DNA of 64,000 nt, taken from Escherichia coli (GTDB lineage Bacteria > Pseudomonadota > Gammaproteobacteria > Enterobacterales > Enterobacteriaceae). Location: assembly GCF_044647545.1 (NCBI RefSeq), contig NZ_CP172818.1; one strand, 5' to 3'. The notes under the pieces are model-generated. The model was not told where the DNA came from and did not search any database. It saw only the letters and a list, made by a program, of their open reading frames with translations. Within the stretch, counting starts at the first letter, position 1. Each line of letters opens with the position of its first letter. The translations under genes were made by a program, and so were the position numbers. Positions 1-45,479 of this stretch are shown here, in pieces.

Positions 1-461
1 TCCATGCACAATGCGCGAGCGATCGCCACACGCTGCTGCTGACCGCCGGAAAGCTGCGCCGGAAACTTATTGGCATGAGCGGAAAGCCCGACGCGCTCCA
101 GCAATTTCAATGCTTTTTCACGAGCGGGGGCTTTATCGCGTTTAAGCACTTTCACCTGCGCCAGGGTCAGGTTTTCAATAATCGACAAATGGGGGAACAA
201 CTCGAAATGCTGGAACACCATCCCGACGCGGGAACGCAGCTTTGCCAGATCGGTTTTCTTATCGTTAACCACGATACCATCGACGGTAATTTCACCTTGC
301 TGCACCGGTTCGAGGCCGTTGACGGTTTTAATCAGCGTTGATTTGCCGGAACCAGACGGGCCGCAAACCACCACCACTTCGCCTTTTTTCACTTCGGTTG
401 AGCAGTCGGTCAGCACCTGAAAGTGACCATACCATTTTGAAACATTTTTCAGGGTAATCAT
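1..461 (-). CDS. gltL: Glutamate/aspartate ABC transporter ATP-binding protein, 3' end truncated by window edge
   Basis: Reverse-strand translation from ATG at 459-461 gives Walker A (GPSGSGKST) and ABC signature (LSGGQQQR); start overlaps gltK stop (TAATG); position in gltIJKL operon. Confidence 0.85.
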   Translation of the reverse strand, partial: MITLKNVSKWYGHFQVLTDCSTEVKKGEVVVVCGPSGSGKSTLIKTVNGLEPVQQGEITVDGIVVNDKKTDLAKLRSRVGMVFQHFELFPHLSIIENLTLAQVKVLKRDKAPAREKALKLLERVGLSAHANKFPAQLSGGQQQRVAIARALCM

Positions 462-1135
462 TATGCTGTCCTTCTTTTCAAGTAGCTGACCAACAACGAT
501 GCGCTAAGGCTAATAACGAAATAAACAAATCCGGCAAACAGGATCATCTCGACCTGCGTACCATCACGCTCACCAATGGTTGAGGCGGTACGGAAGAAAT
601 CGGCCAGAGATAACACATACACCAGTGAGGTATCCTGGAACAGTACGATGCCCTGAGTGAGCAGAAGCGGCACCATCGCGCGGAAAGCCTGCGGCAGAAT
701 AATCAGTTTCATCGACTGCCAGTGAGTCATCCCCAACGCCAGCGCGGCGCTCGACTGACCACGGGAAATACTTTGAATACCGGCACGGATAATCTCTGAA
801 TAGTAGGCCGCTTCAAACATCGAAAACGCCACCATCGCCGAGATTAAACGGATATCATTTTTTGGCGATAATCCCAGCACGTTTTGCAGAAAACCCGGCA
901 CAATCAGGTAAAACCACAGCAAAACCATAACTAAAGGAATCGAGCGGAATACGTTAACGTAGGCTTTGGCAAACCACGCTACGGGCGCAAAGCTGGACAA
1001 GCGCATCACCGCCAGCATGGTGCCCCACAAAATACCAATCACGACTGCCGTGACGGTGATTTTCAGGGTGATCACCAGCCCATCCAGCAGATACGGCAGG
1101 GAAGGAACAATGGAACTCCAGTCAAACTCGTACAT
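461..1135 (-). CDS. gltK: Glutamate/aspartate ABC transporter permease
   Basis: 224 aa ORF, polar amino-acid permease family, operon context. Confidence 0.9.
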
Positions 1136-1875
1136 TATTTGCCCCCCATGTTGCCGGGCAGGCGAACTTTACGTTCAACCAGCGTCATCACCAGCATGAT
1201 AAAAGCGTTAATCAACACATACGCAAGCGTAATGGCGGTAAACGACTCCCAGGCGTGAGCGGAGTAATCGAGTAATTTACCCGCCTGCGCCGCCATATCT
1301 ACCAGACCGATAGTCGAGGCGATGGCGGAGTTTTTCACCAGGTTCATCATCTCGGAGGTCATCGGCGGGACGATAACGCGATAAGCGTTAGGCAACAGTA
1401 CGTAGCGGTAAGCCTGCGGTAGCGTCAGCCCCATCGCCAGCGCGGCATTCTTCTGCCCACGCGGCAGCGACTGAATAGCGGCGCGTACCTGTTCGCAAAC
1501 ACGGGCGGCGGTAAACAGCCCCAGGCAAAGCATGGATGAAAGGAAAAACTGAATATTGGGATCCAGCTCGGCCTTAAACCACATGCCGATTTTCTCCGGC
1601 AGCAGCTCCGGGATCACCAGATACCAGGTAAAGAATTGCACAATCAACGGCACGTTGCGGAACAGTTCGACATACAACGTACCCAGACCGGAGAGAAAAC
1701 GGTTTGGAACGGTACGTAAAATGCCGAAAAATGAACCGACGAGGAAAGCGATAATCCAGGCGCAGATCGACAAAGCGATCGTCACCTGAAAGCCACTCCA
1801 GATCCAACCAAGATAGGTGGTGTTGCCGAACGGGGCTTGTTGTAAAAAAATACCCCAGTTCCAGTCTATAGACAT
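1135..1875 (-). CDS. gltJ: Glutamate/aspartate ABC transporter permease
   Basis: 246 aa ORF, overlapping start/stop with gltK. Confidence 0.9.
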
Positions 1876-1885
1876 AAATCTACTC

Positions 1886-1921
1886 CAGAAAAAAGAGGGT
1901 AGCAGCGTTAACTGCTACCCT
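1886..1921 (-). terminator. Intrinsic terminator in gltI-gltJ spacer
   Basis: Hairpin gagggtagcag/ctgctaccctc followed by U-run on minus strand. Confidence 0.6.
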
Positions 1922-2044
1922 CGAAGATTGTTACCCAGCGTATTGCGGTTTTCAGGCCCGATGGGGAACGACCACCAGGCGTATAGTCTGTCCGTGCTAC
2001 GTAACAATCGAGAGGGCTGGAATTTCCGCCCCTGGTTCTTGTAA
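1886..2044 (-). ncRNA. sroC: SroC sRNA (processed from gltI-gltJ intergenic region)
   Basis: Position between gltI stop and gltJ start ending at the intergenic terminator; boundaries approximate, from established knowledge. Confidence 0.4.
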
Positions 2045-2953
2045 TTAGTTCAGTGCCTTGTCATTCGGTTCTTTGAACAGTGCTTTCATTTCGTCTGACA
2101 GTTCGAAATTCATGTTCAGGTTTTTCGGCGGAATTGGGTTTTTGAACCACTTATCAAACCATTTTTCCGCTTCACCGGAGGTCTGCACCTGAGCGATAGT
2201 GTCATCCATCAGCTTTTTGAACTGCGGATCGTCTTTACGCAACATGCAACCGTAGGCTTCCTGAGACTGCGGCTTGCCGACGATTTCCCAGTTGTCTGGT
2301 TTCTTCGCTTTCGCACGTTCACCGGCCAGCAGGGCATCATCCATCATAAAGGCAACGGCACGACCGCTTTCCAGGGTGCGGAAAGAGTCACCGTGATCTT
2401 TGGCGCTGATGATGCGCATGTTCATTTTTTGCTCTTCATTCAGTTTGTTGAGCAAAACTTCAGAGGTGGTGCCGGAAGTGACTACGACGGCTTTGTCTTT
2501 CAGATCGGCAAAATCTTTAATATCGCCGCCTTTTTTTGTCAGCAGGCGCGTACCGACCACGAAAATAGTGTCGGAGAAAGCCGCCTGTTTTTGGCGTTCG
2601 ACGTTGTTGGTGGTAGAACCGCATTCAAAATCGAAAGTGCCGTTTTGCAGCAGTGGAATACGGTTTTGTGAGGTGATCGGAATCAATTTCACCTGTAAGT
2701 CTGGTTTGTTGAGTTTCTTTTTCACTGCTTCAACAATGGCGTTGGAGTAATCCTGCGAGTAGCCCACCACTTTTTGCTGATTGTCGTAATAAGAGAAAGG
2801 TACTGAAGATTCACGGTGACCGACGACAATCACGCCGTTTTTGGCGATTTTGTCCAGCGTGCTGCCTGCTGCCGGGGCGGCGTCATCTGCCTGTGCCAGT
2901 CCTGCGGAAAGCGCCAGGGCCAGGATTGCTGTGGCAGGTTTACGTAATTGCAT
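2045..2953 (-). CDS. gltI: Glutamate/aspartate periplasmic binding protein
   Basis: ORF 2045..2959; signal peptide MQLRKPATAILALALSAGLAQA; 302 aa from second Met. Confidence 0.9.
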   Translation of the reverse strand: MQLRKPATAILALALSAGLAQADDAAPAAGSTLDKIAKNGVIVVGHRESSVPFSYYDNQQKVVGYSQDYSNAIVEAVKKKLNKPDLQVKLIPITSQNRIPLLQNGTFDFECGSTTNNVERQKQAAFSDTIFVVGTRLLTKKGGDIKDFADLKDKAVVVTSGTTSEVLLNKLNEEQKMNMRIISAKDHGDSFRTLESGRAVAFMMDDALLAGERAKAKKPDNWEIVGKPQSQEAYGCMLRKDDPQFKKLMDDTIAQVQTSGEAEKWFDKWFKNPIPPKNLNMNFELSDEMKALFKEPNDKALN

Positions 2954-3050
2954 ATCCAACTCCTTTATCTTCTGCGTTAAAAACGCATGGATACCCGTTG
3001 TGAGTGTTTGTGTTGTTATCTCTGCGACTTTTTGTGCGGTTGTGTTTTGG

Positions 3051-3082
<32 letters not shown>

Positions 3083-3649
3083 TTAGGTAACATTTAGTTT
3101 GGATAAATGTAAAGGTATTGCTGTTTTATTGTTTGTTTTTGCGAGATGCGCCGCACCATTCCGAAGCAAAATTCTTAAACTGCACCTTTTTGGTGCTACC
3201 GCTGATTTGTGGTGGTGCAACCCGGTTGCGTCGCGGTTGATTTCATTGCTTACACAGTAAATAAAGCAACTTACATGCCAAAAAATACTTAGGGGTGCAT
3301 TAATTACGATTGTAATTTCAGTTTGAAAAAGTCATATTTCGGACAGTGTTAACTTTTCGGTGTGGGAATTTTGCCGGGATGATAACTACACACGGGAAAA
3401 TGTTTTTTACTAGTCTTTTCAAGGAAAAATCACTTTATGTCTGCATCTTCGGTTAAGCCGTTAAATGTTCAATTACCCGCAATAACCCTGATCCTTTTTG
3501 CGCTCTGTGTTGGGATATTTTGTTACCTCGCACAATGGATGAGTTACAAAAAAGTCAATAAATCCGCACTCATCCATCTCGGCGCTAACTTTCTCTCTCT
3601 CACGTTGTCGGGTAAACCCTGGCGTTTATTTAGCAGTGTCTTTTTACAG

Positions 3650-5060
3650 TATTTTTTCTCTTTTATAGATATATATTTTTGCACTCTGGTTAGGGGGGAG
3701 GGGGGGAAGGGAAAATGGGGAAAAGGGGATCCCTATTGTTTGCCTTTTTCTCTCGGGTTTGTGTGGTGAGCACATCGTCTTGTGTTATGCGCGAAAAAAA
3801 AGAGAAAAGATAGATAGGTGGGGGGGCCGGGGGAAAAAAGGAAAAAAAGGGGGGGCGGTAAGAAAAAAACACTTCTTTAGGGGGGAGAACACAATAAAAA
3901 ACAGCGGCGAGGTTTTTTCCTTTTTGGTGGGGTGGCGCTAACGTTGTGTTGCGGCCCGGGAAAAAGAGAAAAAAAAAGCCTCTTCAATGGCGGGGCCGTG
4001 GGTGGGGGGGGGGGTTGGGTGGGGGGGGGCCCGGTTAGGTGGGACAAAACCGTTTCGTAAGGAAGGGCGAGTTTTTTGTGGCTCTTCTTTTCTCCGGCGG
4101 GGTATTTCGGGTGTGCAGCAGCAGAATGATGAAAAATTTTTTTAAAATAGGGGAAAACCGCGTGAAAAGTTTTTTTCCCAGGAGAATAAACAAAAGGAGC
4201 GAAAAAAAAAACAACAATTTAGGGGGGAGGGCAAAGCCCCCACCGAAACATTATCCGCTCCGGTAAGTCGTGAGGAGGCCAGTGGTGATTTACTCGCTGA
4301 GATTGCCGATAACCATGATATGGCGATCAATCGGGATGGTAATACGTTATATGCCGCAAATGAAAACACGAACAGTATTTTTTTTTTCGACCTCGGACAA
4401 AAGAAAATCTCCCATACTTTTATACCGCCCATAGCAAAAAAAAAAAAACACAAAAATTGTGGGGTCTGTAAAAATAAGGGGGTAAGATGGCGGTGGTTAA
4501 GCCCGAAAAAAAGGTTTTTTTATCCACTTTTATTTAAAATGAATGCGTGATCGTTAATAAAGGGGCGGAGGGGGGGGATAATTCAGTCAATAACCACCTG
4601 CACACATCCTGACAGTTTTATCCTCTCGTGGAATGAAAAAAAAGCTGGGTGAATAATGCAACCAATAAAATGTATTTATTCATCTATTGATTTATTAACT
4701 TATAAGGAAGGAGATGCCGCCCGAAAAAAAAAAAACGGGGGGGGGAGGAGGGGAAAAAGACGCCCGTGTGATATTACTCTCCGCGGTAAAAAAACATTGT
4801 TGATACCGCTTGGATTGAGAGAAAGCATATTCGAATCAATAACATCACGAATCATAAAGTAGAATTTCCCACATGTGATGGGTGTGGTGTCGTTGTTGTG
4901 ATGGGAGTATGATAACGAAAAAATAATAGTATTTTTATCGATAATATCGAGGGTATACGAGTAAAAGTTTAAGGATAGAAAAAAAAGAAGCAAAGATCAA
5001 AAGGGAGTGGTGAAACCGTTATCTCTATTAGGTTGAGAGGCAGGAGTGTAAATAGTTGTG
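3650..5060. repeat. Low-complexity purine homopolymer-rich block (G-runs to 11, A-runs to 12), no coherent ORF
   Basis: Runs of G and A interleaved with short AT-rich stretches; ORF-track peptides here are homopolymer translations (K/G/F runs). Confidence 0.8.
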
Positions 5061-5423
5061 TTTTGGTCTGGATGGCAAAGGGATTGTAACCTTTTTTAAT
5101 ATAAAGCCGGGGAAAAGATTGGCGGTTTTTCTCCCCATAACTTTTATTCTTCTCTGTTTTTCAGCGGATGGTAGAAAGATATTTGTTATGGCGAAGAACG
5201 GGTTAATCCAAATGGACAGGACGCGCTCGCTTGATCCGCAGGCAATTATTCGGCATCCCCAATATGGTGATGTGGCTTGTATCCCTGAACCGTAAGAAAA
5301 AGGGGCATGATAATCACGCCCGAAGTAATGAGAAAGTACGTTTTGTTGATACCGGATGCGGTGTTAACGGTTTATTTAGCCTGCAAAAATGATGCAATTT
5401 TGCAGGCCAGCGCATCATTTACA

Positions 5424-6965
5424 TCAACGTTTACGTCGCTGACGCAGACTCATCAACACAGCGGCAAAACCAAACAGCGCCGTAAGCACCCACAGCGGCC
5501 AGTTGCCGGTACGTGCGTACGGTGTGAGTCCGGTAGTCGGCGTCACGTTAGTGGTCAACACTTCGCGGGTGAACTGCGGGATCATTGCCTGAATCTCACC
5601 CTGCGGGCCAATCACCGCCGTAATACCGTTGTTGGTGCTACGCAGCAATGGGCGCGCCAGCTCCAACGCACGCATTCGCGCCATCTGGAAGTGCTGCCAT
5701 GGACCAATAGACTTACCAAACCACGCATCGTTGGAGATAGTCAGCAGATAGTCGGTATCCGGGCGGAAGTTATCGCGCACTTGCTCGCCGAGAATGATCT
5801 CGTAGCAAATAGCCGCAGTAAGCTCAATACCATTTACCGACAGCGGCGGCTGGATATATGGCCCACGGCTGAACGACGACATCGGCAGATCAAAGAACGG
5901 TGCTAACGGACGCAGAATCGACTCCAGCGGGACAAACTCGCCAAACGGCACCAGATGGTTTTTGTTATAGCGATCGGCTGATTCATAGCTGTACGGTGCG
6001 CCTTTACCCAGTGTGATGATGGTGTTGTAGGTATCGTAGCGGTTCTGCTTATTGAGACGCGCGTCGACAATCCCGGTGACCAGCGAGCTACCTTTATCGC
6101 GCAACTCACCGTCCAGAGCTTTGAGGAACGGTTGCTGATTAATTTCCAGATCGGTTATCGCCGACTCCGGCCAGATAATCAACGATGATTTGCCCATCAG
6201 CGGTGCCGTTGCGTTGTAGTAAATCTTCAGCGTATTAAGAAGCTGGCCTTCGTCCCATTTCAGCGATTGCGGAATATCGCCCTGAACCATCGAAACCTGA
6301 ATGGTTTTCTCCGGTTGCGGGGTAAACCACTGGATGTAACGCAGCGGGAAGGGTAGGGCAAACAGCACGACGGCCACCACCAGCGGACGCCAGTTGCGTT
6401 TGACTAACGCCAGTGCCAGCAGGCCGCTAACCATCATAAGCAGGAAGTTAATGGCTTCCACGCCCATTAGCGGTGCCAGCCCTTTTAACGGGCCATCAAT
6501 CTGGCTATAGCCGAACTGTAACCACGGGAAGCCAGTCAGCACCCAACCGCGCAGAAACTCGGTCACTTGCCAGAGAGCAGGAGCGGCAATCGCCACGCGC
6601 AGCCAGGTGGTTTTCGGCCACAGACGCGACAGCACGCCAGCAAACAGTCCGGTATACAGCGACAAATACGCCGCCAGCAGTACCACCAGGAAGATGTTAA
6701 CCGGGCCAGGCATTCCGCCAAAGGTCGCGATGCTGACATAGACCCAGTTAATACCGCTGCCAAAGAGACCAAATCCCCAGCAAAAGCCAATAGCGGCAGA
6801 CTGGAGTGGACGGCGGTTAAAGGTCAGCGCCTGAAGCCCCATCAGCGAAATAATCGCCGCAGGCCAGACATCGTAAGGAGAGAAGGCCAGCGTTCCGCAG
6901 GCACCGAATAATAACGCCAGCAGCAGGCGAATGCGCTGGCGTTCAATTAATGAGGCAAAAGCCAT
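5424..6965 (-). CDS. lnt: Apolipoprotein N-acyltransferase
   Basis: 513 aa ORF, N-terminal membrane segments plus nitrilase-like domain, context lnt-corC-ybeY-ybeZ. Confidence 0.9.
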
Positions 6966-6989
6966 GTAGTTATCTATCCAGTTTCGGTT

Positions 6990-7868
6990 TTATTCATCCA
7001 GCTTCGGCTGGGGTGAGTCATCCGGGATTTTGACATGAACCTGAATAATACGCCGACTGTCGGCCATCGCCACTTTGAACTGGTAACCGTCGATGTCGAT
7101 GGTTTCGCCACGCGCCGGAAGATGCCCAAATGCCTGCATCACCAGACCACCGATAGTGTCAACCTCTTCATCGCTAAAGTGGGTACCGAACGCTTCGTTG
7201 AAGTCTTCAATGGAAGCCAGTGCGCGCACGGTCCAGGTATGACGACTCAACTGACGGAAGTCGATATCATCTTCTTCGTCATACTCGTCTTCAATCTCAC
7301 CAACAATCAGTTCCAGGATGTCTTCAATGGTCACCAGACCGGAAACCCCACCGAATTCGTCAATGACGATCGCCATGTGGTAACGCTGAGAGCGAAACTC
7401 TTTCAGCATCCGGTCTACGCGCTTACTTTCAGGAACGACAACCGCCTGACGTAACACTTTGTCCATGCTGAAGGCTTCAGCATCGCTGCGCATAAACGGC
7501 AGCAAGTCTTTCGCCATCAGAATCCCTTCAATGTGATCTTTGTCTTCGCTAATCACCGGGAAACGTGAGTGGGCGGACTCGATGATGACATCAAGGCATT
7601 CGTCCAGTGTCTGGTTGCGTTTCAGGGTAATCATCTGGGAGCGGGGGATCATGATGTCGCGGACGCGTTGGTCTGCGATGTCCATCACCCCTTCGAGCAT
7701 ATCGCGCGTATCTTCGTCGATAAGGTCGTTCTGCCCGGAATCACGGATCAGCGCCAGCAGTTCGTCACGGTTTTTCGGTTCACCGTGGAAAAGTTGGCTG
7801 AGTAACAGGGAGAAAAATCCCTTCTTGTTGCTTATCGTGTCACTACTGTGTGAATTGTCGTCGCTCAT
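6990..7868 (-). CDS. corC: Mg/Co efflux-associated CBS-domain protein
   Basis: 292 aa ORF, CBS pair plus CorC_HlyC C-terminus. Confidence 0.9.
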
Positions 7869-7957
7869 GGCGTCGTATGGGTTCTCATGTTAGTTAATCA
7901 AAACGCCGTCGTTAATCACCAACGGCGGGGACGTCTGCCAGTCAAATGCCTGGCAAA

Positions 7958-8425
7958 TTATTCTTTCTCGGCAATGTACGGATCCTCATAGCCCAGAGCA
8001 AGCATAATCTCTGTTTCGAGGGCTTCCATTTCTTCTGCTTCGTCATCTTCGATGTGATCGTAACCTAACAAATGCAGACTGCCGTGCACCACCATATGCG
8101 CCCAGTGCGCCTCCAGTGGTTTGCCTTGCTCCTGAGCTTCCTTCTCAACCACCTGACGGCAGATAACCAGATCGCCCAGTAGCGACATTTCCATGCCAGG
8201 CGGCACTTCAAACGGGAAGGAGAGCACGTTGGTCGGCTTATCCTTACCGCGATAGGTCAGATTCAGACTGTGGCTTTCGGCGGTATCGACCACGCGAATA
8301 GTCACTTCCGACTCTTCCTGAAACTGCGGGATCACCGCATTCAGCCATGTCTGAAACTGGCTCTCTTCCGGTAACCCGGAATTATCTTCACATGCCAGTT
8401 GTAAATCGAGGATCACCTGACTCAT
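7958..8425 (-). CDS. ybeY: Endoribonuclease YbeY (16S rRNA 3' maturation)
   Basis: 155 aa ORF with HGxLHLxGYDH metal-binding motif. Confidence 0.9.
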
Positions 8426-9462
8426 TTTTGTTCCTGTTCTTCGCGCTTGCGTTCTGCTGCCAGCGCCGCTTTACGTTTTTGTTCGGCTTCTTCCCAGGCT
8501 TCATAAGCGTTAACGATACGCGCCACCACCGGGTGACGAACCACGTCTTCGCTGTGGAAGAAGTTAAAGCTGATCTCTTCAACATCGGCCAGCACTTCGA
8601 TGGCGTGACGCAAGCCTGACTTGGTATTACGCGGCAGGTCGATCTGTGTGACGTCGCCGGTGATAACCGCTTTTGAGTTAAAACCGATACGGGTCAGGAA
8701 CATCTTCATCTGTTCGATGGTGGTGTTCTGGCTCTCATCGAGAATGATAAACGCGTCGTTCAGCGTACGACCACGCATATAGGCCAGCGGCGCGACTTCA
8801 ATAACGTTGCGCTCAATCAGTTTCTCGACTTTCTCAAAGCCCAGCATTTCAAACAGCGCGTCGTACAGTGGGCGCAAATACGGGTCTACTTTCTGGCTTA
8901 AATCGCCAGGCAGGAAGCCCAGTTTCTCACCGGCTTCTACCGCCGGACGAGTCAGCAGAATACGGCGAATTTCCTGACGCTCCAGGGCATCAACTGCCGC
9001 AGCCACTGCCAGGTAGGTTTTACCCGTACCCGCCGGGCCAACGCCGAAGGTGATGTCATGGTCGAGAATATTGGCGATGTACTGCGCCTGGTTTGGCGTG
9101 CGCGGCTTGATTACGCCGCGTTTGGTTTTGATATTGACCGCTTTGCCGTACTCCGGCACGCTCTCCGCGCTTTGCTCCAGTACCCGCGCTTCTTTAATCG
9201 CAAGGTGGATCTGTTCCGGTTCGATATCCTGAATCTGACCACGCATCGGGGCAGTATCGACATACAGGCTACGCAGAATGTCTGCCGCAGCGGTGACGCA
9301 AATCGGACGGCCGGTCAGTTTAAAGTGGTTATCGCGGCGATTGATCTCGATGCCGAGACGGCGTTCGAGCTGCTTGATGTTGTCATCAAACGGGCCGCAC
9401 AGGCTCAACAGACGCGCATTGTCTGCTGGCTCCAGGGTGATTTCGCGAGTGTCTATGTTCAA
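8422..9462 (-). CDS. ybeZ: PhoH-like ATPase
   Basis: ORF 8422..9501; Walker [10 protein letters not shown]-12-length product (346 aa) implies TTG start at 9462, the ATG at 9501 is an alternative. Confidence 0.85.
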
Positions 9463-9614
9463 ACCGTTCCTCTTATCTGTATGCCGCCGGAAGCTGAACA
9501 TTCACCGGCCTATAAGGAAATTATTCACGCCACAGGAAAAAGGCGCAAGCATTGCGATAAAGATGGGGATAAAGAGAGAAAAAACAAGGCCCACCGGAAC
9601 GGCGGGCCTGAGAA

Positions 9615-11039
9615 TTACGGCTGATAATAACCCACGCCAAGGTCGTTTTCTTTGCGGGTACGGGCAATCACCGATTCCGGCGTTTCTGCCACGCGCAGAC
9701 CCATTTCATCTTCAGTACGCACCACTTTACCGCGCAGAGAGTTCGGGTAGACGTCGGTAATTTCTACATCGACGAATTTACCGATCATATCTGGCGTGCC
9801 TTCAAAGTTGACCACGCGGTTATTTTCAGTGCGACCGGAAAGCTCCATGATGCTCTTACGCGATGTACCTTCTACCAGAATACGCTGGGTGGTGCCGAGC
9901 ATCCGGCGGCTCCATGCCATTGCTTGCTGATTAATACGTTCTTGCAGAATATACAGACGCTGCTTCTTCTCTTCTTCCGGAACATCATCAACCATATCGG
10001 CGGCTGGTGTACCTGGACGTGCAGAGAAGATAAAGCTGTAGCTCATGTCGAAATTGACGTCGGCAATCAGCTTCATCGTTTTCTCGAAGTCTTCGGTGGT
10101 TTCGCCAGGGAAGCCAACGATGAAGTCAGAACTGATCTGAATATCCGGACGCGCCGCACGCAGTTTACGGATGATCGCTTTGTACTCCAGCGCTGTATGG
10201 GTACGTCCCATCAGGTTCAGAATGCGATCGGAACCGCTCTGTACCGGCAGATGCAGGAAGCTCACCAGCTCCGGCGTGTCGCGATACACTTCGATGATAT
10301 CGTCGGTGAATTCGATCGGATGGCTGGTGGTAAAGCGAATACGATCGATCCCGTCGATCGCCGCAACCAGACGCAGCAGATCGGCAAACGATCCGGTGGT
10401 GCCGTCGTAGTTTTCACCACGCCAGGCGTTCACGTTCTGACCGAGCAGGTTGACTTCACGCACGCCCTGAGCCGCAAGCTGGGCAATTTCAAACAGAATA
10501 TCGTCGGACGGACGGCTTACCTCTTCACCACGGGTGTAAGGCACCACGCAGTAGGTGCAATATTTATTGCAGCCTTCCATGATGGAGACAAACGCGGTCG
10601 GCCCTTCGGCGCGCGGTTCTGGCAGACGGTCAAACTTCTCGATTTCCGGGAAGCTGATATCTACAACCGGGCTGCGGTCGCCGCGCACGGAGTTGATCAT
10701 CTCCGGCAGACGGTGCAGCGTTTGCGGCCCAAAAATAATATCGACATAGTGGGCGCGCTGGCGAATGTGCTCGCCTTCTTGCGATGCCACGCAGCCGCCG
10801 ACGCCGATTATCAGGTCTGGATTCTTCTCTTTTAACAGTTTCCAGCGACCCAACTGATGGAAGACTTTTTCCTGAGCCTTCTCGCGGATTGAGCAGGTGT
10901 TCAGCAGCAGCACATCCGCTTCTTCCGCCACGTCGGTCAGTTGATAGCCGTGGGTGGCATCCAGCAGATCGGCCATCTTCGATGAATCGTACTCGTTCAT
11001 CTGACAGCCCCAGGTTTTAATATGGAGTTTTTTGGTCAT
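9615..11039 (-). CDS. miaB: tRNA-i6A37 methylthiotransferase
   Basis: 474 aa ORF with radical-SAM CxxxCxxC motif (CNKYCTYC). Confidence 0.9.
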
Positions 11040-11184
11040 CGACTTGCTCTTGCGAAATAGTAGCCAGGAATGCAGGGCGCATAGTGTAATGCTTTGCTGC
11101 CGTTGTGACCAGTATGAGCGTTATCAGCCCTTGGGGGTAAAAATCCTGTAAACTTAAAGCATATTGCTAACAGGATGATTGACC

Positions 11185-12360
11185 ATGACAAATCAACCAA
11201 CGGAAATTGCCATTGTCGGCGGAGGAATGGTCGGCGGCGCACTGGCGCTGGGGCTGGCACAGCACGGATTTGCGGTAACGGTGATCGAGCACGCAGAACC
11301 TGCACCGTTTGTCGCTGACAGCCAGCCTGACGTGCGGATCTCGGCGATTAGTGCGGCTTCGGTATCATTGCTTAAAGGTTTAGGCATCTGGGACGCGGTA
11401 CAGGCTATGCGTTGCCATCCTTACCGCAGACTGGAAACGTGGGAGTGGGAAACGGCGCATGTGGTGTTTGACGCCGCTGAACTTAAGCTACCGTTGCTTG
11501 GCTACATGGTGGAAAACACTGTCCTGCAACAGGCGCTGTGGCAGGCGCTGGAAGCGCATCCGAAAGTAACGTTACGTGTGCCAGGCTCGCTGATTGCATT
11601 ACATCGAGATAATGATCTTCAGGAGCTGGAGCTGAAAGGCGGTGAAGTGATCCAGGCGAAGCTGGTGATTGGCGCTGACGGTGCAAATTCGCAGGTGCGG
11701 CAAATGGCGGGAATTGGCGTTCATGCCTGGCAGTATGCGCAGTCGTGTATGTTGATTAGCGTACAGTGCGAGAATGATCCCGGCGACAGCACCTGGCAGC
11801 AGTTTACTCCGGACGGGCCGCGTGCGTTTTTGCCGCTGTTTGATAACTGGGCGTCGCTGGTGTGGTATGACTCTCCGGCGCGTATTCGCCAGTTGCAGAA
11901 TATGAATATGGCGCAGCTCCAGGCGGAAATCGCGAAGCATTTCCCGTCGCGTCTGGGTTACGTGACACCGCTTGCCGCTGGTGCGTTTCCGCTGACACGT
12001 CGCCATGCGTTGCAGTATGTGCAACCAGGGCTTACGCTGGTGGGCGATGCCGCGCACACCATTCATCCGTTGGCGGGGCAGGGGGTTAACCTCGGTTATC
12101 GCGATGTTGATGCGCTGATTGACGTTCTGGTGAATGCCCGCAGCTACGGTGAAGCGTGGGCCAGTTATCCTGTCCTCAAGCGTTACCAGATGCGGCGTAT
12201 GGCGGATAACTTCATTATGCAAAGCGGTATGGATTTGTTTTATGCCGGATTCAGCAATAATCTGCCACCACTGCGTTTTATGCGTAATCTCGGATTAATG
12301 GCGGCGGAGCGTGCTGGCGTGTTGAAACGTCAGGCGCTGAAATATGCGTTAGGGTTGTAG
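11185..12360 (+). CDS. ubiF: FAD-dependent ubiquinone biosynthesis hydroxylase
   Basis: ORF 11179..12360; GGGMVG dinucleotide-binding motif; start at second Met assumed. Confidence 0.85.
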   Translation: MTNQPTEIAIVGGGMVGGALALGLAQHGFAVTVIEHAEPAPFVADSQPDVRISAISAASVSLLKGLGIWDAVQAMRCHPYRRLETWEWETAHVVFDAAELKLPLLGYMVENTVLQQALWQALEAHPKVTLRVPGSLIALHRDNDLQELELKGGEVIQAKLVIGADGANSQVRQMAGIGVHAWQYAQSCMLISVQCENDPGDSTWQQFTPDGPRAFLPLFDNWASLVWYDSPARIRQLQNMNMAQLQAEIAKHFPSRLGYVTPLAAGAFPLTRRHALQYVQPGLTLVGDAAHTIHPLAGQGVNLGYRDVDALIDVLVNARSYGEAWASYPVLKRYQMRRMADNFIMQSGMDLFYAGFSNNLPPLRFMRNLGLMAAERAGVLKRQALKYALGL

Positions 12361-12390
12361 CCTTACAACATTGCCGGATGCATGCCAACC

Positions 12391-12426
12391 GTAGGTCGGA
12401 TAAGACGCGTCAGCGTCGCATCCGAC
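12391..12426. repeat. REP (repetitive extragenic palindrome) element
   Basis: gtaggtcggataagacgcgtcagcgtcgcatccgac matches REP consensus. Confidence 0.6.
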
Positions 12427-12480
12427 TTTGAAGGATAAGACGTGTCAACATCGCATTCGACATTGAATATACGCAGAAAA

Positions 12481-12510
12481 GCAAAAAGCTCGCCGAAGCG
12501 AGCTTTTTTA
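12481..12510. terminator. Bidirectional intrinsic terminator (ubiF / tRNA operon)
   Basis: Hairpin gctcgc-cgaa-gcgagc flanked by A-run and T-run. Confidence 0.6.
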
Positions 12511-12513
12511 ATG

Positions 12514-12588
12514 TGGCTGGGGTACGAGGATTCGAACCTCGGAATGCCGGAATCAGAATCCGGTGCCTTACCGCTTGGCGATACCCCA
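12514..12588 (-). tRNA. glnX: tRNA-Gln (anticodon CUG)
   Basis: 75-nt cloverleaf sequence read on reverse strand, anticodon loop UUCUGAU, 3' CCA encoded. Confidence 0.9.
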
Positions 12589-12625
12589 ACTGGGTGCACT
12601 TACAAGGTAAGCGTCTTGAATAAAT

Positions 12626-12700
12626 TGGCTGGGGTACGAGGATTCGAACCTCGGAATGCCGGAATCAGAATCCGGTGCCTTACCGCTTGGCGATACCCCA
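12626..12700 (-). tRNA. glnV: tRNA-Gln (anticodon CUG)
   Basis: Identical copy of the preceding tRNA-Gln(CUG). Confidence 0.9.
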
Positions 12701-12748
12701 ACAAATTGGTTTTTGAATTTGCCGAACTTATTCGACACATTCAGAATT

Positions 12749-12825
12749 TGGTGGCTACGACGGGATTCGAACCTGTGACCCCATCATTATGAGTGATGTG
12801 CTCTAACCAACTGAGCTACGTAGCC
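12749..12825 (-). tRNA. metU: tRNA-Met elongator (anticodon CAU)
   Basis: 77-nt tRNA, anticodon loop with CAU, 3' CCA. Confidence 0.9.
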
Positions 12826-12840
12826 AGATTGTTTCTTCGA

Positions 12841-12915
12841 TGGCTGGGGTACCTGGATTCGAACCAGGGAATGCCGGTATCAAAAACCGGTGCCTTACCG
12901 CTTGGCGATACCCCA
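12841..12915 (-). tRNA. glnW: tRNA-Gln (anticodon UUG)
   Basis: 75-nt tRNA, anticodon loop UUUUGAU. Confidence 0.9.
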
Positions 12916-12949
12916 ATAACCGGGCGGTGAACCGCTTACTCGAAGAAGA

Positions 12950-13024
12950 TGGCTGGGGTACCTGGATTCGAACCAGGGAATGCCGGTATCAAAAACCGGT
13001 GCCTTACCGCTTGGCGATACCCCA
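12950..13024 (-). tRNA. glnU: tRNA-Gln (anticodon UUG)
   Basis: Identical copy of tRNA-Gln(UUG). Confidence 0.9.
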
Positions 13025-13047
13025 TCCGTACAACGCTTTCTGGTGAA

Positions 13048-13132
13048 TGGTGCGGGAGGCGAGACTTGAACTCGCACACCTTGCGGCGCCAGAACCTAAA
13101 TCTGGTGCGTCTACCAATTTCGCCACTCCCGC
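13048..13132 (-). tRNA. leuW: tRNA-Leu (anticodon UAG)
   Basis: 85-nt class II tRNA with long variable arm. Confidence 0.9.
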
Positions 13133-13140
13133 AAAAAAGA

Positions 13141-13217
13141 TGGTGGCTACGACGGGATTCGAACCTGTGACCCCATCATTATGAGTGATGTGCTCTAACC
13201 AACTGAGCTACGTAGCC
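13141..13217 (-). tRNA. metT: tRNA-Met elongator (anticodon CAU)
   Basis: Identical to the metU copy at 12749..12825. Confidence 0.9.
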
Positions 13218-13256
13218 ATCTTTTTTTTCGCGATACCTTATCGGCGTTGCGGGGCG

Positions 13257-13286
13257 CATTATGCGTATAGAGCCTTGCAGCGTCAA
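13257..13286 (-). promoter_or_regulatory. Candidate sigma70 promoter of the metT tRNA operon with GC-rich discriminator
   Basis: On minus strand TTGACG, 17-nt spacer, CATAAT, then GCGCCCC discriminator immediately upstream of metT. Confidence 0.5.
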
Positions 13287-13586
13287 CCTCTTTTTCAAGG
13301 AAAATTGCTCGAAAGTGACTGTTTGGTTAGGTTGCGAACAGCGTGGCGCTATATTCGTCAATTATTGTTTACTTTGTGTTTTTTCCCCACCCTACAGCCA
13401 TTCTTTTGTCATACAGGATGAAATTCGGAATTCAACAATAGTGGTGGGAAATTAATCTATGAAATACTCCCTTCAACAACACAGGATTACCTCATTTCTA
13501 CCACACATTTATTAGGAATACTATCTTTTATACATTATTACTTAAACCTCCAACCAAACCGAAAAAAATATTTTTTAAAATTAAAA

Positions 13587-13645
<59 letters not shown>

Positions 13646-13744
13646 GAAGCGTGGCCTACAGTGATGAATTGTCAAACAGTGATGTGGCAAACCCGGAACA
13701 TTTCCTTACTGCATATCAGAATCAACAAGCACCTCAATAACTGA

Positions 13745-37715: not shown

Positions 37716-40396
37716 ATATCCTCATGAAATTCTTCAAGTTCAGGAGCGGTTTGCTGGGGAAGTGTAACACGAAAACAGGCACCGCCTTCCGGTCGGTTGA
37801 ACGCGGTAATGGTGCCGCCGTGTACATCCACAATCGCCCGACAAATTGCCAGCCCAAGCCCGACGCCCGGCACTGCCGACTCTTTATTCCCGCGGGCAAA
37901 CTTATCGAATATCGTCTGCTCCTGGCCTGGCGGAAGACCGGGGCCGTTATCCCAGACATCCAGTTGTAGATTTTCGCCCTCAACGTGGGCATCGATACCA
38001 ATTTCGGCCTGCGCACCCGCGTATTTCACCGCGTTTTCCAGCAGATTAATCAGCACCCGTTCAAAGAGTGGCCCATCAACGTGGATTAAGGTCAGCGGTT
38101 CTGGCAAAGACAGGTTGATGGGCGATGATAATCCCGGTTCCAGCATTTGCAGCGCGCTGCCGACCACTTCTTCCAGCGTTAACCACTCTTTCTTCAAATT
38201 AAAGCCGCCGGACTGAATTCGCGCCATATCCAGTAGATTATTCACCAGTCGGGTCGTGTTCAGCACATGCTGGCGAATCTCGCTGGCCTGGCGGGCGTGG
38301 GGCGATCCTTCGCTTGCCAGATCGAGCGTTAAGATTTCGGCCTGACCGAACAGCACCGTAAGCGGCGTGCGTAAATCATGCGAAAGTGCCGCCAGCAGGG
38401 CGTTGCGGATCTGTTCACGTTCGCTTGCCATCCGCGCCTGTTCTTCGCTGGCGGTCAGTGTCAGCCGCTCAAGCGCATTGGCGACTAACAGCGTAAACGT
38501 CTCCAGCAGGCGTTGCTGTTCCGGGATCATCAACTGGCGCAGATTCCCCGGTTCCACCACCACCAGCCCGTAGGTTTTCTCGCCGCTTTTTAGCGGCAAA
38601 ATCTGGTACGGTACACCGGGTAACGTGTCGGTGCCCGCGCCCGCAGGCAGGCCTTTATCAAAACTCCACTGCGCGATGGCATCGTCCCACGGCGTCATTC
38701 CTTGCGGATGTGTTAACGGCTGCAATTTACCGTTGTCATCAGGCAGCAACACCTGGCTACGGGCATGAAACGTGGAGGCAATAAACTGTTCGCTGGTGGC
38801 GGCGATATCCTGCGAACTACGGCCCACAGCCAGAGCTTTGGACATTTCATATAAGTGCCGTGTGCGTTGTTCGCGGTAACGGGCTACCCGCGCCTGATAA
38901 CGCACGCCAGCAGTAAGGTTCCCGATCACCAGCCCGACGGTTAACATCACCGCGAAGGTCAGCAGATATTGCACATCAGAGACGGCGAGCGTGCCGCGTG
39001 GGGCGATAAAAAAGAGATCGAAACTCACCACATTAATGACGGTGGCAACCACCGAAGGCCAGCGTCCGTAAAATAGTGCCACCACCACGACGCCAAGCAG
39101 ATACAGCATCACCAGGTTGGCGGCATCAAACGCCATCAGCCACTGCATGGCAATTAAGGTGATAACGGCGCATAACGCGGCGGCAACCACGCATCCCTGA
39201 ATCTGTACCCGCCACTTGTCTTTAAAAGAGCGGCTATCCGGCGCGTTGTTAATCGTGCGGGCGGGTGGTTCATCAAGCGCGACCAGCACCTGATCGAGAT
39301 CGGGGGCGATTCGCGCCAGTCGGTCAGCAAACGTTTCCCGACGCCACCAGCGGCGCGAGGCCGGGCGACCGAGAATAATCTTGCCGAGATTATGTTCACG
39401 GGCATAACGCACTACCGCTTTCTCTTCCGCTGGATCAGAAAGTGTTGCCGTCTCCGCGCCCAGCTCCTGCGCCAGACGTAAGGCGCTGAGAATTGCCCGA
39501 CGTTTTTTCTCCGGTAAGCGATGCAGGGCAGGGGTTTCAACATACACCGCGTGCCAGACACTACCCAGGCGCGAGGCCAACCGCGCCGCCGCGCGGACCA
39601 GTTTCTCACTGCCGGTGTTATGCCCGATGCATAAAAGGATCGCGTCGCGTGTGTGCCAGACTTTCTCTTCGCCAGGATGCCCCCGCCAGGCGCGCATTTG
39701 CTCATCAACGCGATCGGCAGTACGGCGCAGTGCCAGTTCGCGCAGGGCGATCAGATTGCCTTTGCGGAAAAAATGTTCAATGGCGCGCTCCGCCTGCCCG
39801 GCAATATAGACTTTGCCTTCTTTCAGCCGCTGGCGCAGATCGTCCGGGGGCAAGTCCACCAGTACTACGTCGTCGGCGGCATCAAAAAAAGGATCGGGCA
39901 CGGTCTCCCGTACCTGAATTCCGGTGACGCCGCTGACCACATCATTCAGACTTTCCAGATGCTGAACGTTGACGGTAGTGAAAACATCAATGCCAGCTTC
40001 CAGCAGCTCTTCGATGTCCTGCCAGCGTTTAGGATGACGTGAACCTGGCGCATTACTGTGCGCCAGTTCGTCCATTAAGATCAGTGCCGGACGGCGGGCG
40101 AGGGCGGCATCGAGATCAAACTCGCTGATGTGCCGCCCACGGTACGCCTGGCGTTTTAACGGCAGAACAGCCAGACCTTTCAGCATGGCGGCGGTATCTT
40201 TCCGACCGTGGGTTTCTACCACGCCAACCACAATATCCAGCCCTTGCGCCCGCAGTCGCTGGGCTTCCGCCAGCATCGCCCAGGTCTTCCCGACGCCTGC
40301 GCAGGCACCGAAGAATACTTTCAGCTTCCCCCGATGCGGCGCGGCAGCTTGTTCCAGCAGACGATCGGGGTCGGGACGTAAGGGTTCGTTATTCAT
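37712..40396 (-). CDS. kdpD: KDP sensor histidine kinase
   Basis: ORF 37712..40429; 894 aa from [10 protein letters not shown]; KdpD N-domain, USP, four TM helices, HisKA/HATPase. Confidence 0.95.
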
Positions 40397-40961
40397 CAAG
40401 CTTATCCAGTGCCAGATTGAGTTCGACAATGTTGACGACCGGCTGGCCGATATAGTTCACCAGCGGTTGTTGGCTGTATTTTGCGATCAGTTGCGTGAGC
40501 TGTTCAACGCTGAGATTACGCGCTTTCGCCACGCGTGGGATCTGCCAGGCCGCCGCTTGCGGGGTGATGTTATTGTCCAGCCCGCTTGCCGACGCCGTCA
40601 CCAGTTCAACCGGAACGCTCGTGCTGGCGTCCGGGTTAGCGGCCCGTAATGCGGCAACGCGTGCGGCTATCTGTTTATCCAGCTCCGGGTTACTGACTGC
40701 CAGATTGCTCCCGCCAGAAGCCTGTGGATTATAGGGCATTTCTGCTGTTGCCGACGGGCGACCATGAAAATAGCCGTTGCCGGTAAAATTTTGCCCGATT
40801 AATGCCGAACCGCGCACCGTATCACCTTCACGAATCAATGAACCGTTGGCCTGCCAGGGAAACCACCATTGCCCCAGTGCGGTGGTCAGCAGCGGGTAAA
40901 CGCCGCCAGTAATCAATAACAGAAAGAGAAATGTCGATAATGCCGGACGTAATCCACTCAT
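40389..40961 (-). CDS. kdpC: K+-transporting ATPase subunit C
   Basis: ORF 40389..40985; 190 aa from MSGLRPAL. Confidence 0.9.
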
Positions 40962-40969
40962 GGTAAACC

Positions 40970-43018
40970 TCACACCAGACCGCAAACGGTTAGCAGTAAA
41001 TCAATGACTTTGATACCAATAAACGGCACCAGCAGCCCACCCAGACCGTAAATCCATAAGTTACGGCGCAACATGGCAGAAGCGGTAAGCGGTTTATAAC
41101 TCACGCCTTTTAACGCCAGGGGAATCAAAAAGACGATAATCAAGGCGTTGAAAATCACCGCACTGAGAATGGCGGAGTCGGGCGAATGCAGGCGCATGAT
41201 GTTCAGCGCATTTAACTGCGGATACGTTGCCGCGAACGCCGCCGGAATAATGGCGAAGTATTTCGCCACATCGTTGGCAATGCTGAAGGTGGTCAGCGAG
41301 CCACGGGTCATCAGCATCTGTTTGCCAATATGTACCACCTCGATCAACTTGGTCGGGTTAGAGTCGAGATCCACCATATTGCCCGCTTCTTTCGCCGCCT
41401 GAGTACCAGAGTTCATCGCCACCGCGACATCTGCCTGCGCCAGCGCCGGAGCATCATTGGTGCCGTCGCCGGTCATCGCCACCAAACGGCCTTCCGCCTG
41501 ATACTGACGAATCAATGCCAGCTTGGCCTCCGGTGTCGCTTCGGCGAGAAAATCATCGACACCCGCTTCCGCAGCTATCGCGGCGGCAGTCAGACGGTTA
41601 TCACCCGTAATCATCACCGTTTTAATGCCCATTTTGCGCAGTTGGGCGAAGCGCTCTTTAATACCGCCTTTGACGATATCTTTCAGCGCAATAACGCCCA
41701 GCACATGAGAACCTTCCACCACCACCAGCGGCGTAGCTCCCTGACGCGCAACCTGATCGACTTTTTGATCAACATCGGCAGGGAAGTGACCACCGTTAGC
41801 CTCAACATGGCGGCGAATGGCATCGACAGAACCTTTACGGATCATGCGGTTGTCGATGTTGATCCCGCTCATCCGGCTTTGCGCAGTAAACGGTACAAAG
41901 GTGGCGTGAAGCGACTGCACATCGCGCTCACGCAGGTTAAAACGCTGCTTGGCGAGGATCACAATACTGCGGCCTTCCGGCGTTTCATCAGCCAGCGAAG
42001 CCAGTTGTGCGGCGTCAGCCAGCGTTTTTTCATCCACGCCCTGCGCAGGGATAAACTCCGACGCCTGACGGTTACCAAGTGTGATGGTGCCGGTTTTATC
42101 CAGTAGCAGAACGTCAACGTCACCTGCCGCTTCAACTGCACGTCCGCTGGTGGCAATCACATTCGCGCCCAGCATCCGACTCATCCCGGCGACGCCAATC
42201 GCTGACAACAGGCCGCCAATAGTGGTTGGGATCAGACAGACCAGCAGCGCCACCAGTACCGTTACACTCACTGCATTACCGCCCCACGCGGAAAACGGCC
42301 ATAGCGTGGCGGTTGCCAGTAAAAAGACGATAGTCAGGGCAATCAGGAGAATGGTCAGGGCAATCTCGTTCGGCGTTTTGCGTCGCTGTGCGCCTTCCAC
42401 CATCGCGATCATCCTATCCAGAAATGTCTCGCCGGGGTTAACGCTGCACTCAATCACCAGCCAGTCAGAAAGAATACGCGTGCCGCCAGTGACGGAGGCA
42501 AAATCGCCGCCGGATTCACGGATCACCGGTGCCGATTCCCCGGTGATGGCGCTTTCATCGACCGATGCGCCGCCTTCAATGACTTCACCATCGCAGGGGA
42601 TAATATCGCCAGCTTCTACCAGCACGATATCGCCTTTACGCAGTTGATCGGCAGGAACTTTGTCCGCCGCAGCGCCATATTTCGGCTCACGAAGCTTGCG
42701 GGCAAAGGCAGTTTTTTTCACCCCTTTCAGACTGTTGGCCTGCGCTTTACTGCGGCCTTCTGCCAGCGCCTCGGCGAAATTAGCGAACAGTACGGTGACC
42801 CACAGCCAGCCGCTAATTGCCGCGCTAAACAGCGCATTGCCAGGCATCGCACCGCTTGCCATTGCGATGCAAATAAAGGTGGTTAACAGACTGCCGATCC
42901 AGACGATAAACATCACCGGATTGCGCCATTGCGCCTGCGGGTTTAATTTTTTCACCGCTTCTTTCAGCGCCTGAACGACAAGTGTTGGTTCGAATAGCGC
43001 CAGTTGTTTACGACTCAT
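40970..43018 (-). CDS. kdpB: K+-transporting P-type ATPase catalytic subunit B
   Basis: 682 aa ORF with DKTGT phosphorylation motif and TGDN. Confidence 0.95.
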
Positions 43019-43040
43019 ATTCAGTGCTCACTCAATATCA

Positions 43041-44714
43041 TCAGGAGAGATATTCCGCCACCGGACCAAGCGCCAGGGCAGGGATAAAGGTCAGTGCGCC
43101 AACCAGCAACACGGTGCCGATTAACAGGCCAACAAACAGCGGGCCGTGCGTTGGCAATGTGCCGGAGCTGGCGGGTTGGCTCTTTTTACTCACCAGCGAA
43201 CCGGCAATTGCCATCACCGGGATAATCACCCCGAAGCGCCCGACAAACATGCACAACGCCAGTAAACAGTTCCAGAATGGAGAGTTGGCGCTTAATCCGG
43301 CAAAGGCGCTGCCGTTGTTGTTAGCGGCGGACGACACGGCGTACAGCACTTCGCTAAAACCATGCGGGCCAGGGTTGAGCATGGCGCTACGTCCGGCGTC
43401 GGTCATCATCGCCAACGCCGCGCCCATCAGCACCAGTGTTGGAGTAACCAGAATCGCCAGTGCGGTCAGTTTCATCTCGCGTACGTCGATTTTTTTACCC
43501 AGATATTCCGGTGTACGACCAATCATCAGCCCGGCAATAAACACCGCCAGCAGGACAAACAGCATCATGCCGTAAAGGCCGGAACCGACGCCGCCGAATA
43601 CCACTTCACCAATTTGCATCAACCACATCGGCACCATGCCACCAAGAGCGGTAAACGAATCATGCATCGCAATCACCGCGCCACAGGAAGCCGCCGTAGT
43701 CACGACCGCAAACAGGCTACTGACCAGCACGCCGAAACGACTCTCTTTACCTTCTATATTGATGCTGCTGTCCGCGCCCAGTGCCAGCAGATGCGGATTA
43801 CCCTGAACTTCTGCCCACATCACCACGCCTGTGCAGATGATAAAAATCACTGACATCGCCCACAGCAACATGCGCCCCTGACGGCGATCGCCCGCCACTT
43901 CGCCAAAGGCAAAGCACAGTGCCGTTGGGATCAAGAAGATCGCCAGCATCTGCACGAAGTTGGTCAGTGCGGTTGGGTTTTCAAACGGATGCGACGAGTT
44001 GGCATTAAAGAAGCCACCGCCGTTAGTGCCGAGCATCTTTATCGCTTCCTGAGAAGCCACCGGACCCATTGGTAACAGCTGTTTCGCTCCTTCAACGGTA
44101 TTCACCGCCTGATAGGGCTGAAAGTTTTGCAGCGCACCTTGTTGAATAAAAAACAGTGCGATCAACAACGCCACAGGGACTAGCACCCATAACGTGATGC
44201 GTAGCAGATCGACCCAGGCATTCCCGAGTGTGCTCATGCTCTGGCGGGTAAACGCACGGATGAGGGCAAAAATCACCGCAATCCCGCTGGCGGCAGAAAG
44301 AAAGTTTTGCACCGTTAAGCCCGCCATCTGGCTGAAATAGCTCAACGTGGTTTCACCGCTATAAGATTGCCAGTTGGTGTTCGTGACAAAGCTGACGGCG
44401 GTATTGAGCGCCAGATCCCACGACAGCCCCGGCAACTGCTGTGGATTAAGCGGCAGATAGTGCTGACCGAGCAACATAAAAAACAGCACCGCCAGCCCCA
44501 GTATATTCAGGCCAAGAATGGCTGAGAGATACTGCTTCCAGTTCATCTCGCGGTCAGAGACGCCAAGCGCGCTAAAGAGTACGCGTTCAACGCCCGTCGT
44601 ACCAGGAAGAGGTATATCATTAATCAGCCGCGCCAGCCCGCTACCTAAGGGACGCGCCAGCACCATTAATACCAGTAAAAACGTGGCAATCAGTAAGAAC
44701 CCTTGCGCAGCCAT
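43041..44714 (-). CDS. kdpA: K+-transporting ATPase channel subunit A
   Basis: ORF 43041..44858; 557 aa from [12 protein letters not shown]. Confidence 0.9.
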
Positions 44715-44803
44715 CAGAACGCCTCCGCATTGATCAGGGCATAAACCAGATAACCCAGTAATAAAAACACCAGCAACACGCCGGCTATCACGCCTGCACT
44801 CAC
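44714..44803 (-). CDS. kdpF: KdpF small membrane subunit (29 aa, GTG start)
   Basis: [29 protein letters not shown] single TM helix; stop overlaps kdpA start. Confidence 0.7.
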
Positions 44804-44884
44804 AGTGCACCTCCAGTGGCCTAAAAGTGATACCGGAAGGGTAGAGTTCTGGCTGCAAAGATTTCGCAAAAATCTGCGGGCGGG

Positions 44885-44906
44885 GTGTAAAAAAAGTATA
44901 AAAATG
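44885..44906 (-). promoter_or_regulatory. Candidate KdpE operator upstream of kdpFABC
   Basis: T-rich element (minus strand catttttatactttttttacac) about 80-100 bp upstream of kdpF. Confidence 0.5.
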
Positions 44907-45115
44907 GCAAAAGCCATGATTTAACTAATGTTTAGTATTAATTTAACTTTTATGTAACTTAATTACACAGTGAATGTAAATAAACCATCAATAAGCAAAA
45001 ATAAGTGGTCGGATGAGTAGTAAAATTACACAAACAGCGGTACTATTTTCATCAGATAAACGAATTCATTTTTCCGGTGCTATTCACCGGGTAGATACAA
45101 AAGGGGGAGAAAAGT

Positions 45116-45322: not shown

Positions 45323-45479
45323 TTGCTGAGTTCTGAATACATTGAAAACCGCCAGCGGAAACGCTGGCGGTTTTATATAAATTTTCCTATTTTCTTTCTA
45401 CATTCTCACTTAAGCTTTCTTTAAATCTGTAGTTTCGCCTGTCAGCAGACAAATAACCCGATAAAACAAGGATGAGCAG

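Follow-up and report, generated by a model that had tools for sequence, protein, structure and literature searches.

The small ORF that opens at position 3437 of our window (the whole 64,000-nt stretch of E. coli DNA analyzed here) is, by its sequence and genomic setting, the still-readable start of a known rhomboid protease gene and not a new gene or phenomenon. The gene, which encodes WP_022645354.1 at the same locus in other E. coli strains, is extensively damaged in the window, and its error spectrum is not that of an evolving sequence. We consider it very likely that this known gene was corrupted in the record by a non-biological process; the scrambling is almost certainly a sequencing, assembly or data error, and we infer that the real strain carries an intact allele, the damage being technical in origin.

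A megablast search with positions 2900–5500 against 5426 complete E. coli genomes matched the interval between gltI and lnt, where the annotated product of the resident gene is a rhomboid family intramembrane serine protease; in strain FDAARGOS_497, this gene is a 1878-nt CDS encoding WP_022645354.1 (625 aa). In a global alignment, its start codon aligns exactly with window position 3437 and its stop codon with 5293–5295. The initial annotation had read the ATG at 3437 as a genuine gene start and had proposed comparing the region upstream of gltI with that of other E. coli genomes; the ATG is indeed the annotated start of the 625-aa protein, and the comparison reveals an intact rhomboid gene at the same locus. 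In the window, the minus strand carries gltJ and gltI as far as 2953 and, from 5424 on, lnt (Table 1). With the intact allele as query, the full locus is found in 3231 of the 5426 complete genomes (about 60%), and the remaining genomes (~40%), K-12 included, carry a clean deletion, to which K-12 adds IS5D. The locus occurs in two structural classes only: either the gene is complete, or it is cleanly deleted, in which case IS5 may or may not be present. At 90% identity, WP_022645354.1 clusters with Shigella proteins in a group of 8814 members. The intact allele matches the Pfam family Rhomboid (PF01694) at residues 59–201 (E = 1.4e-28) and has C-terminal β-propeller matches, and the closest solved structures are the YVTN β-propeller 1l0q (E = 1e-24) and GlpG-type rhomboids. 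Its motifs comprise WR at residues 62–63, HSSFSHLLMN at 71–80, GASG at 131–134 and HIGGLIAG at 187–194, with Ser133 and His187 (of GASG and HIGG) as the catalytic residues. A crude hydropathy scan, which under-counts the glycine-rich TM5 and TM6, detects five segments of strong hydrophobicity, one of them a helix that follows the core at residues 213–231. Taken together, these features mark 3437–5295 as an ordinary E. coli accessory gene, predicted to encode a 625-aa rhomboid protease with a seventh transmembrane (TM) helix and a periplasmic YVTN-type β-propeller.

Table 1. Positions of the rhomboid locus, its damaged segments, its neighbors and the companion patches in the window.
Feature	Position	Strand	Basis
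gltI, intact left neighbor, divergent from the rhomboid gene	2045..2953	-	ORF list and comparison
gltI-upstream anomaly: four single-base deletions, then A28 (3051–3078) in place of ~9 nt	3021..3078	.	Alignment and difference list
Degraded block: sparse neighbor-copy errors at 3368–3540, then 55–80% identity with many homopolymers, abrupt perfect match at ~5160	3368..5160	.	Per-60-nt identity, substitution spectrum, neighbor-copy and codon-position tests
SD-like AAGGAAAAA, 7 nt before the ATG; intact AAGGAAGAA	3421..3429	+	Direct reading; alignment to the intact locus
Reported 110-codon ORF, 5' remnant of the rhomboid gene: TM1 and damaged TM2, then a spurious out-of-register tail	3437..3769	+	ORF list, BLASTP, Pfam, TM scan
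Degraded rhomboid and β-propeller (Rhom7-type) gene, start and stop as in the 1878-nt CDS, no open frame	3437..5295	+	Global alignment
Near-correct island, 95–98% identity, reference residues ~272–320 (…MAINRDGNTLYAA…)	4250..4400	+	Alignment, identity; ORF 4320–4550
Undamaged 3' end: last 45 codons and stop identical to the intact allele	5158..5295	+	ORF list, alignment, identity
Trailing scattered errors, rhomboid–lnt intergenic: one A deletion, three C deletions, one C>G, two C>T	5297..5420	.	Differences from IMT16316
lnt, intact right neighbor, convergent with the rhomboid gene	5424..6965	-	ORF list and comparison
Second block: ~430 nt of reference (most of the hypothetical-protein gene WP_000943487.1) collapsed to ~183 nt	13468..13651	.	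Comparison with reference and K-12

Shigella sonnei Rhom7 (SSON_0610) is the second enterobacterial rhomboid protease (Liu et al., EMBO J 2020, PMC7232013). It is an active rhomboid that cleaves the orphan subunits HybA and FdnH when over-expressed, and its reported features are the catalytic residues Ser133 and His187, both of which were mutated in that study, a seventh TM helix and a C-terminal domain (PMC7232013). The intact allele shares all of these, with Ser133 in GASG, His187 in HIGG, a TM helix after the core and a large C-terminal domain, whereas the window copy, in which the catalytic residues and the reading frame are destroyed, does not show this set of Rhom7-type features and is not a functional member of this group. 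Orthology to Rhom7 is very likely because Ser133/His187, the seventh TM helix and the C-terminal domain are shared and the proteins fall into the same 90% cluster; compared through features and cluster, the gene at the intact locus is probably the orthologue of SSON_0610. Like Rhom7, the intact protein would be expected to cut within TM segments of orphan subunits from respiratory complexes, HybA and FdnH being examples. GlpG (PDB entries such as 2ic8 and 2nr9), the canonical rhomboid of E. coli, resembles the intact allele in its PF01694 domain, and residues ~13–204 of the intact protein show detectable similarity to the solved GlpG structures. However, GlpG, a product of the glpEGR operon, combines six TM helices with a cytoplasmic domain at its N-terminus, whereas the intact allele encodes a 6+1 TM arrangement followed by a C-terminal YVTN β-propeller and is an accessory gene absent from K-12.

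The product of the 110-codon ORF begins with MSASSVKPLNVQLPAITLILFALCVGIFCYLAQW and reads RGEGGKGKWGKG at residues 86–97, bearing out the reported run of this frame into G/A homopolymers. BLASTP aligns the product with WP_022645354.1 at 72 of 98 identities (E = 3e-45); the ORF is thus no chance frame. The first 80 residues, for which the initial annotation had named the lack of a homologue anywhere as the outcome that would speak against it, match this protein clearly. Decay had been placed after about 85 codons, where homopolymers do stand, but it sets in earlier: scattered errors start at 3368, upstream of the ATG, and after codons 1–37, which are identical to the intact protein, amino-acid changes appear from codon 38 on (E38K, E39K, D41N, Q42K, V52F, A53L and E60K), codons 38–70 being still nearly identical and the match being lost after about codon 70. 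The SD-like sequence described ahead of the ATG is also present, although with a spacer of 7 nt instead of 8, and, aligned with its counterpart in intact alleles, it reads as already bearing one neighbor-copy error. The hydrophobic N-terminus, which had been called signal- or TM-like, is a TM segment, namely rhomboid TM1, and not a signal peptide.

TM1 is unaltered in the ORF. A hydropathy scan of the 110-aa product finds only TM1 and a damaged TM2, and not the six or seven TM helices of a rhomboid. The WR pair at residues 62–63 is kept; in TM2, the HxxxxHxxxN motif has changed from HSSFSHLLMN to QYFFSFIDI, with both His residues and the Asn gone. The positions of the catalytic GASG and HIGG motifs are occupied by G/A-rich noise in the window DNA. 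The GxSG motif with the catalytic serine is absent, as the corresponding positions 3814–3851, past the ORF stop, read ATAGGTGGGGGGGCCGGGGGAAAAAAGG…, and the catalytic His of HxxGxxxG in TM6 is gone from 3975–4019, which translates to KASSMAGPWVGGGVG. Both catalytic residues, Ser133 and His187, are by this alignment destroyed in the window copy. A Pfam search of ORF 3437–3766 returned no family at E ≤ 0.01, hence no PF01694 match, and the exact 110-aa product is absent from the public collection of gene positions. Accumulated miscalls and frameshifts would have pushed the 110-codon frame into homopolymer-rich noise.

Over the CDS as a whole, the window copy departs from the intact allele by 337 mismatches, 28 insertion events and 45 deletion events (73 indels; 410 events in 1.86 kb). 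Of the 73 indel events, 63 have lengths that three does not divide, and stop codons number 34, 19 and 34 in the respective forward frames of the degraded gene. Identity per 60 nt is 1.0 up to ~3500, declines through 0.92, 0.81 and 0.78 over 3560–3740 to 0.62–0.74 up to 4220, rises to 0.95–0.98 at 4280–4400, falls again to 0.55–0.78 and returns abruptly to 1.0 at ~5160–5180. A gene body that had been suspected of being either corrupted or replaced is thus corrupted but not replaced, being degraded in place and in register down to its stop codon. The homopolymer excess is likewise real: 43 runs of at least 5 bases fall within 3690–5130 against 7 in the equivalent reference stretch, and their density there is 29.8 per kb, 7-fold that in the rest of the window (4.3 per kb). 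Among the window's 18 runs of at least 8 bases, 12 are located within 3794–4986 and three lie outside all anomalies. The scattered errors between the rhomboid stop and lnt are probably the tail of the same corruption; errors in this segment fall also inside terminator-like hairpins at 5303–5321 and 5343–5370.

A promoter scan found five sigma-70-like sites against 4.2 ± 1.9 in shuffled sequences, i.e., no excess. Terminator-like hits number 11 against 3.1 in shuffles, an excess that stems partly from artificial T-runs. On the minus strand, ORFs of 43–103 aa in 3544–4453 (for example 4142–4453 and 3877–4047) encode Pro-, Phe- or Lys-rich low-complexity peptides; these ORFs are homopolymer by-products and should not be taken as genes.

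The DNA around the damage is clean. The flanks are 100.0% identical to ST648-type genomes, with ~1 event per 10 kb outside the anomalies when compared, for example, with IMT16316: there is no difference in 1–3020 and 5430–13468, a single one in 13651–40000, one in 38816–45374 and two small indels in 53394–62186. These differences, the only ones from IMT16316 in ~50 kb outside the anomalies, are a 1-nt A deletion at 15665, a G/A SNP at 42497, a 4-nt AAGG deletion at 55355 and a 1-nt G insertion at 57670; the first and the third adjoin indel borders relative to K-12. Two larger departures from IMT16316 were also seen. Between ybfA and ybgA, positions 45374–53394 hold an 8-kb RhsC element that is absent from IMT16316 and comprises an intact 1394-aa rhsC, downstream ISAs1/H-repeat genes and an Rhs fragment; rhsC is ~96% identical to K-12 rhsC, and no complete genome exceeds ~96% for the whole element. 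Further corruption or reference carry-over was rejected for this segment on the basis of the intact 1394-aa ORF and its ~96% identity to K-12, and the element looks like natural variation. Beyond abrB, at 62186–64000, the window departs from IMT16316, which has an island with GntR, TRAP-transporter and UxaA genes there, and follows the K-12 arrangement (the side of the ybgO fimbrial operon) at ~97% identity. In structure, the source strain is therefore a mosaic when set against the ST648 genomes, which it matches at 100% elsewhere.

Two companion patches, one upstream of gltI and one at 13468–13651, share the signature of the main block, namely base dropout, homopolymer collapse and abrupt recovery. 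The A28 run of the first patch ends 4 nt before the target site of the K-12 IS5D (TTAG, window 3083–3086) and sits ~100 nt upstream of the gltI start codon. The second patch lies between the metT tRNA cluster and asnB, where it fills exactly a segment deleted in K-12, and it proceeds from G dropout through low-complexity drift and A49+A8 to an abrupt perfect match. A comparison of the whole window with K-12 MG1655 shows that only 3229–5429 and 13468–13652 have no K-12 counterpart, and both are degraded; all three degraded patches sit at presence/absence breakpoints relative to K-12 MG1655.

The nature of the errors distinguishes this damage from natural divergence. Mismatches are spread evenly over the codon positions (114/109/114; chi-square p = 0.93), and transversions exceed transitions (215 versus 122). 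In 236 of the 337 mismatches (70%), the new base equals an adjacent reference base, compared with 168 ± 8 in simulation (maximum 195 in 2000 runs). Directional neighbor copying, as expected of a read lag, was tested as well, and no clear direction emerged (5' neighbor only, 79; 3' neighbor only, 94; both, 63). Within the block, C drops from 21.6% to 14.2% and A rises from 24.8% to 32.5%, A being the least-replaced base, a strand-specific bias. As a positive control, we used the natural divergent allele of strain EC2001 (NZ_CP133811.1, 509–2385), which is 93.5% identical and annotated as a frameshifted pseudogene with an internal stop. In sharp contrast to the window copy, this allele has a strong third-position excess (22/13/61; p = 1.5e-9), more transitions than transversions (62 versus 34), a neighbor-copy fraction of 0.40 and a normal homopolymer density of 4.8 runs per kb. 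The window copy thus lacks the third-position excess, the preponderance of transitions and the flank-like divergence that characterize a natural pseudogene or divergent allele. The degraded version itself is carried by none of the 5426 complete E. coli genomes, in which the best match to 3680–4250 is the intact gene at 67.5% identity, and a distinctive 40-mer (3753–3792) is absent from 100,044 species-representative genomes. Collectively, the flat codon positions, the neighbor copying, the strand bias, the clean flanks and the opposite signatures of the control argue that the damage is not evolutionary.

Genuine biological decay, in which the strain would carry a real rhomboid pseudogene produced by intense localized mutagenesis and homopolymer expansion, is in our judgment very improbable. 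The gene is accessory and dispensable, being deleted in K-12 and ~40% of genomes, its promoter region and the first 100 nt of its CDS are nearly intact in the window, and natural frameshifted alleles such as that of EC2001 do exist, so inactivation as such is not unusual. However, the EC2001 allele has only three 1-nt indels, which indicates natural decay in some lineages but of a kind very unlike that of the window copy, and decay would have to account for ~410 events in 1.86 kb against ~1 per 10 kb over more than 50 kb of flanks. The strand-asymmetric spectrum, unlike the natural E. coli divergence of the control allele, the concentration of 12 runs of at least 8 bases in ~1.2 kb of the block compared with three elsewhere outside the anomalies, and the recurrence of the same signature in two unrelated non-coding or hypothetical-gene patches likewise stand against decay.

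Even less probable, to our mind, is a reading in which the degraded DNA is real and reflects a strand-biased, neighbor-copying hypermutation of accessory segments in an otherwise clonal ST648-like E. coli. If true, such a process would have hit the rhomboid gene, a hypothetical gene by a tRNA cluster and an IS5 hot-spot, and would have made homopolymer-rich pseudo-sequence in a very short evolutionary time. Diversity-generating retroelements, whose mutagenesis targets adenines, were considered and rejected, since A is the base replaced least often here, the reverse of their spectrum, and the reading frame is lost.

Replacement of the middle of the gene through recombination with a distant homologue has next to no likelihood. 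The sharp boundary at 5160 and the perfectly matching flanks are also typical of recombination tracts, but a recombinant gene would stay open and third-position biased, whereas the block has 19–34 stops per frame, 63 frame-breaking indels and even codon positions; moreover, identity on the left side declines gradually without a step, the block remains in register with the local allele and its errors copy the neighboring bases of that very allele, and among the 5426 complete genomes the block has no better match than the ST648 allele. A functional small membrane protein, i.e., a 110-aa product with one or two TM helices and a Gly/Lys-rich tail made from the rhomboid N-terminus, can be regarded as effectively refuted and, for practical purposes, excluded: TM1 is unchanged and the SD-like sequence, the ATG and the intact upstream region are in place, all inherited from the parent gene, but the tail is out-of-register noise from that gene, the TM2 motif is lost, the scrambled positions of Ser133 and His187 come only after the stop, and the product has no Pfam family, no identical entry on record and no counterpart of its form in other complete genomes. 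The initial annotation, too, had judged the ORF not to be a functional small protein, and the missing Pfam family and catalytic Ser and His agree with that judgment.

As for how a technical corruption may have arisen, the record of the rhomboid gene could have been damaged by low-quality base calls, by an unpolished or mis-filled assembly stretch, or by later data-level degradation. Low-quality or unpolished assembly patches are similar to the damage seen here in several respects: a block of 55–80% identity lies between perfect flanks, miscalls extend neighboring bases, dropouts are base-specific, and identity declines gradually and recovers abruptly with no signature of selection. They differ in that no single nameable error mode has as standard features runs as long as A28 and A49 or a coincidence with segments absent from K-12. 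Because all three patches lie at K-12 presence/absence breakpoints, we suspect that reference-dependent reconstruction or gap-filling may be behind them. Such a step would supply sequence of poor single-read quality where the reference had none, and gap-filled segments would be corrected only near their edges, a few hundred bases in. Against a link with absence from K-12, segments 3229–3540, 4250–4400 and 5160–5429 are K-12-absent yet clean; a natural partial-deletion variant as the cause of these clean islands was rejected, as only two structural classes exist at the locus. The error profile, in which substitutions far outnumber indels and homopolymers are expanded, with runs of A28 and A49, fits no one sequencing platform cleanly, and in-silico corruption, or the conversion of ambiguous bases to A, could equally give rise to it.

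The damage itself has no biological importance, since the underlying gene is a known and widespread accessory rhomboid protease gene and the small ORF is no gene. Its significance lies in quality control. The window contains at least three corrupted patches, 3021–3078, ~3368–5420 and 13468–13651, which give rise to spurious ORFs on either strand, to false calls of pseudogenes and to homopolymers that could be mistaken for "contingency tracts"; given that 3021–5420 and 13468–13651 are unreliable, other findings inside them should be discounted. Because only segments with a presence/absence polymorphism relative to K-12 are corrupted, artefacts of this kind would bias pangenome and accessory-gene analyses in particular.
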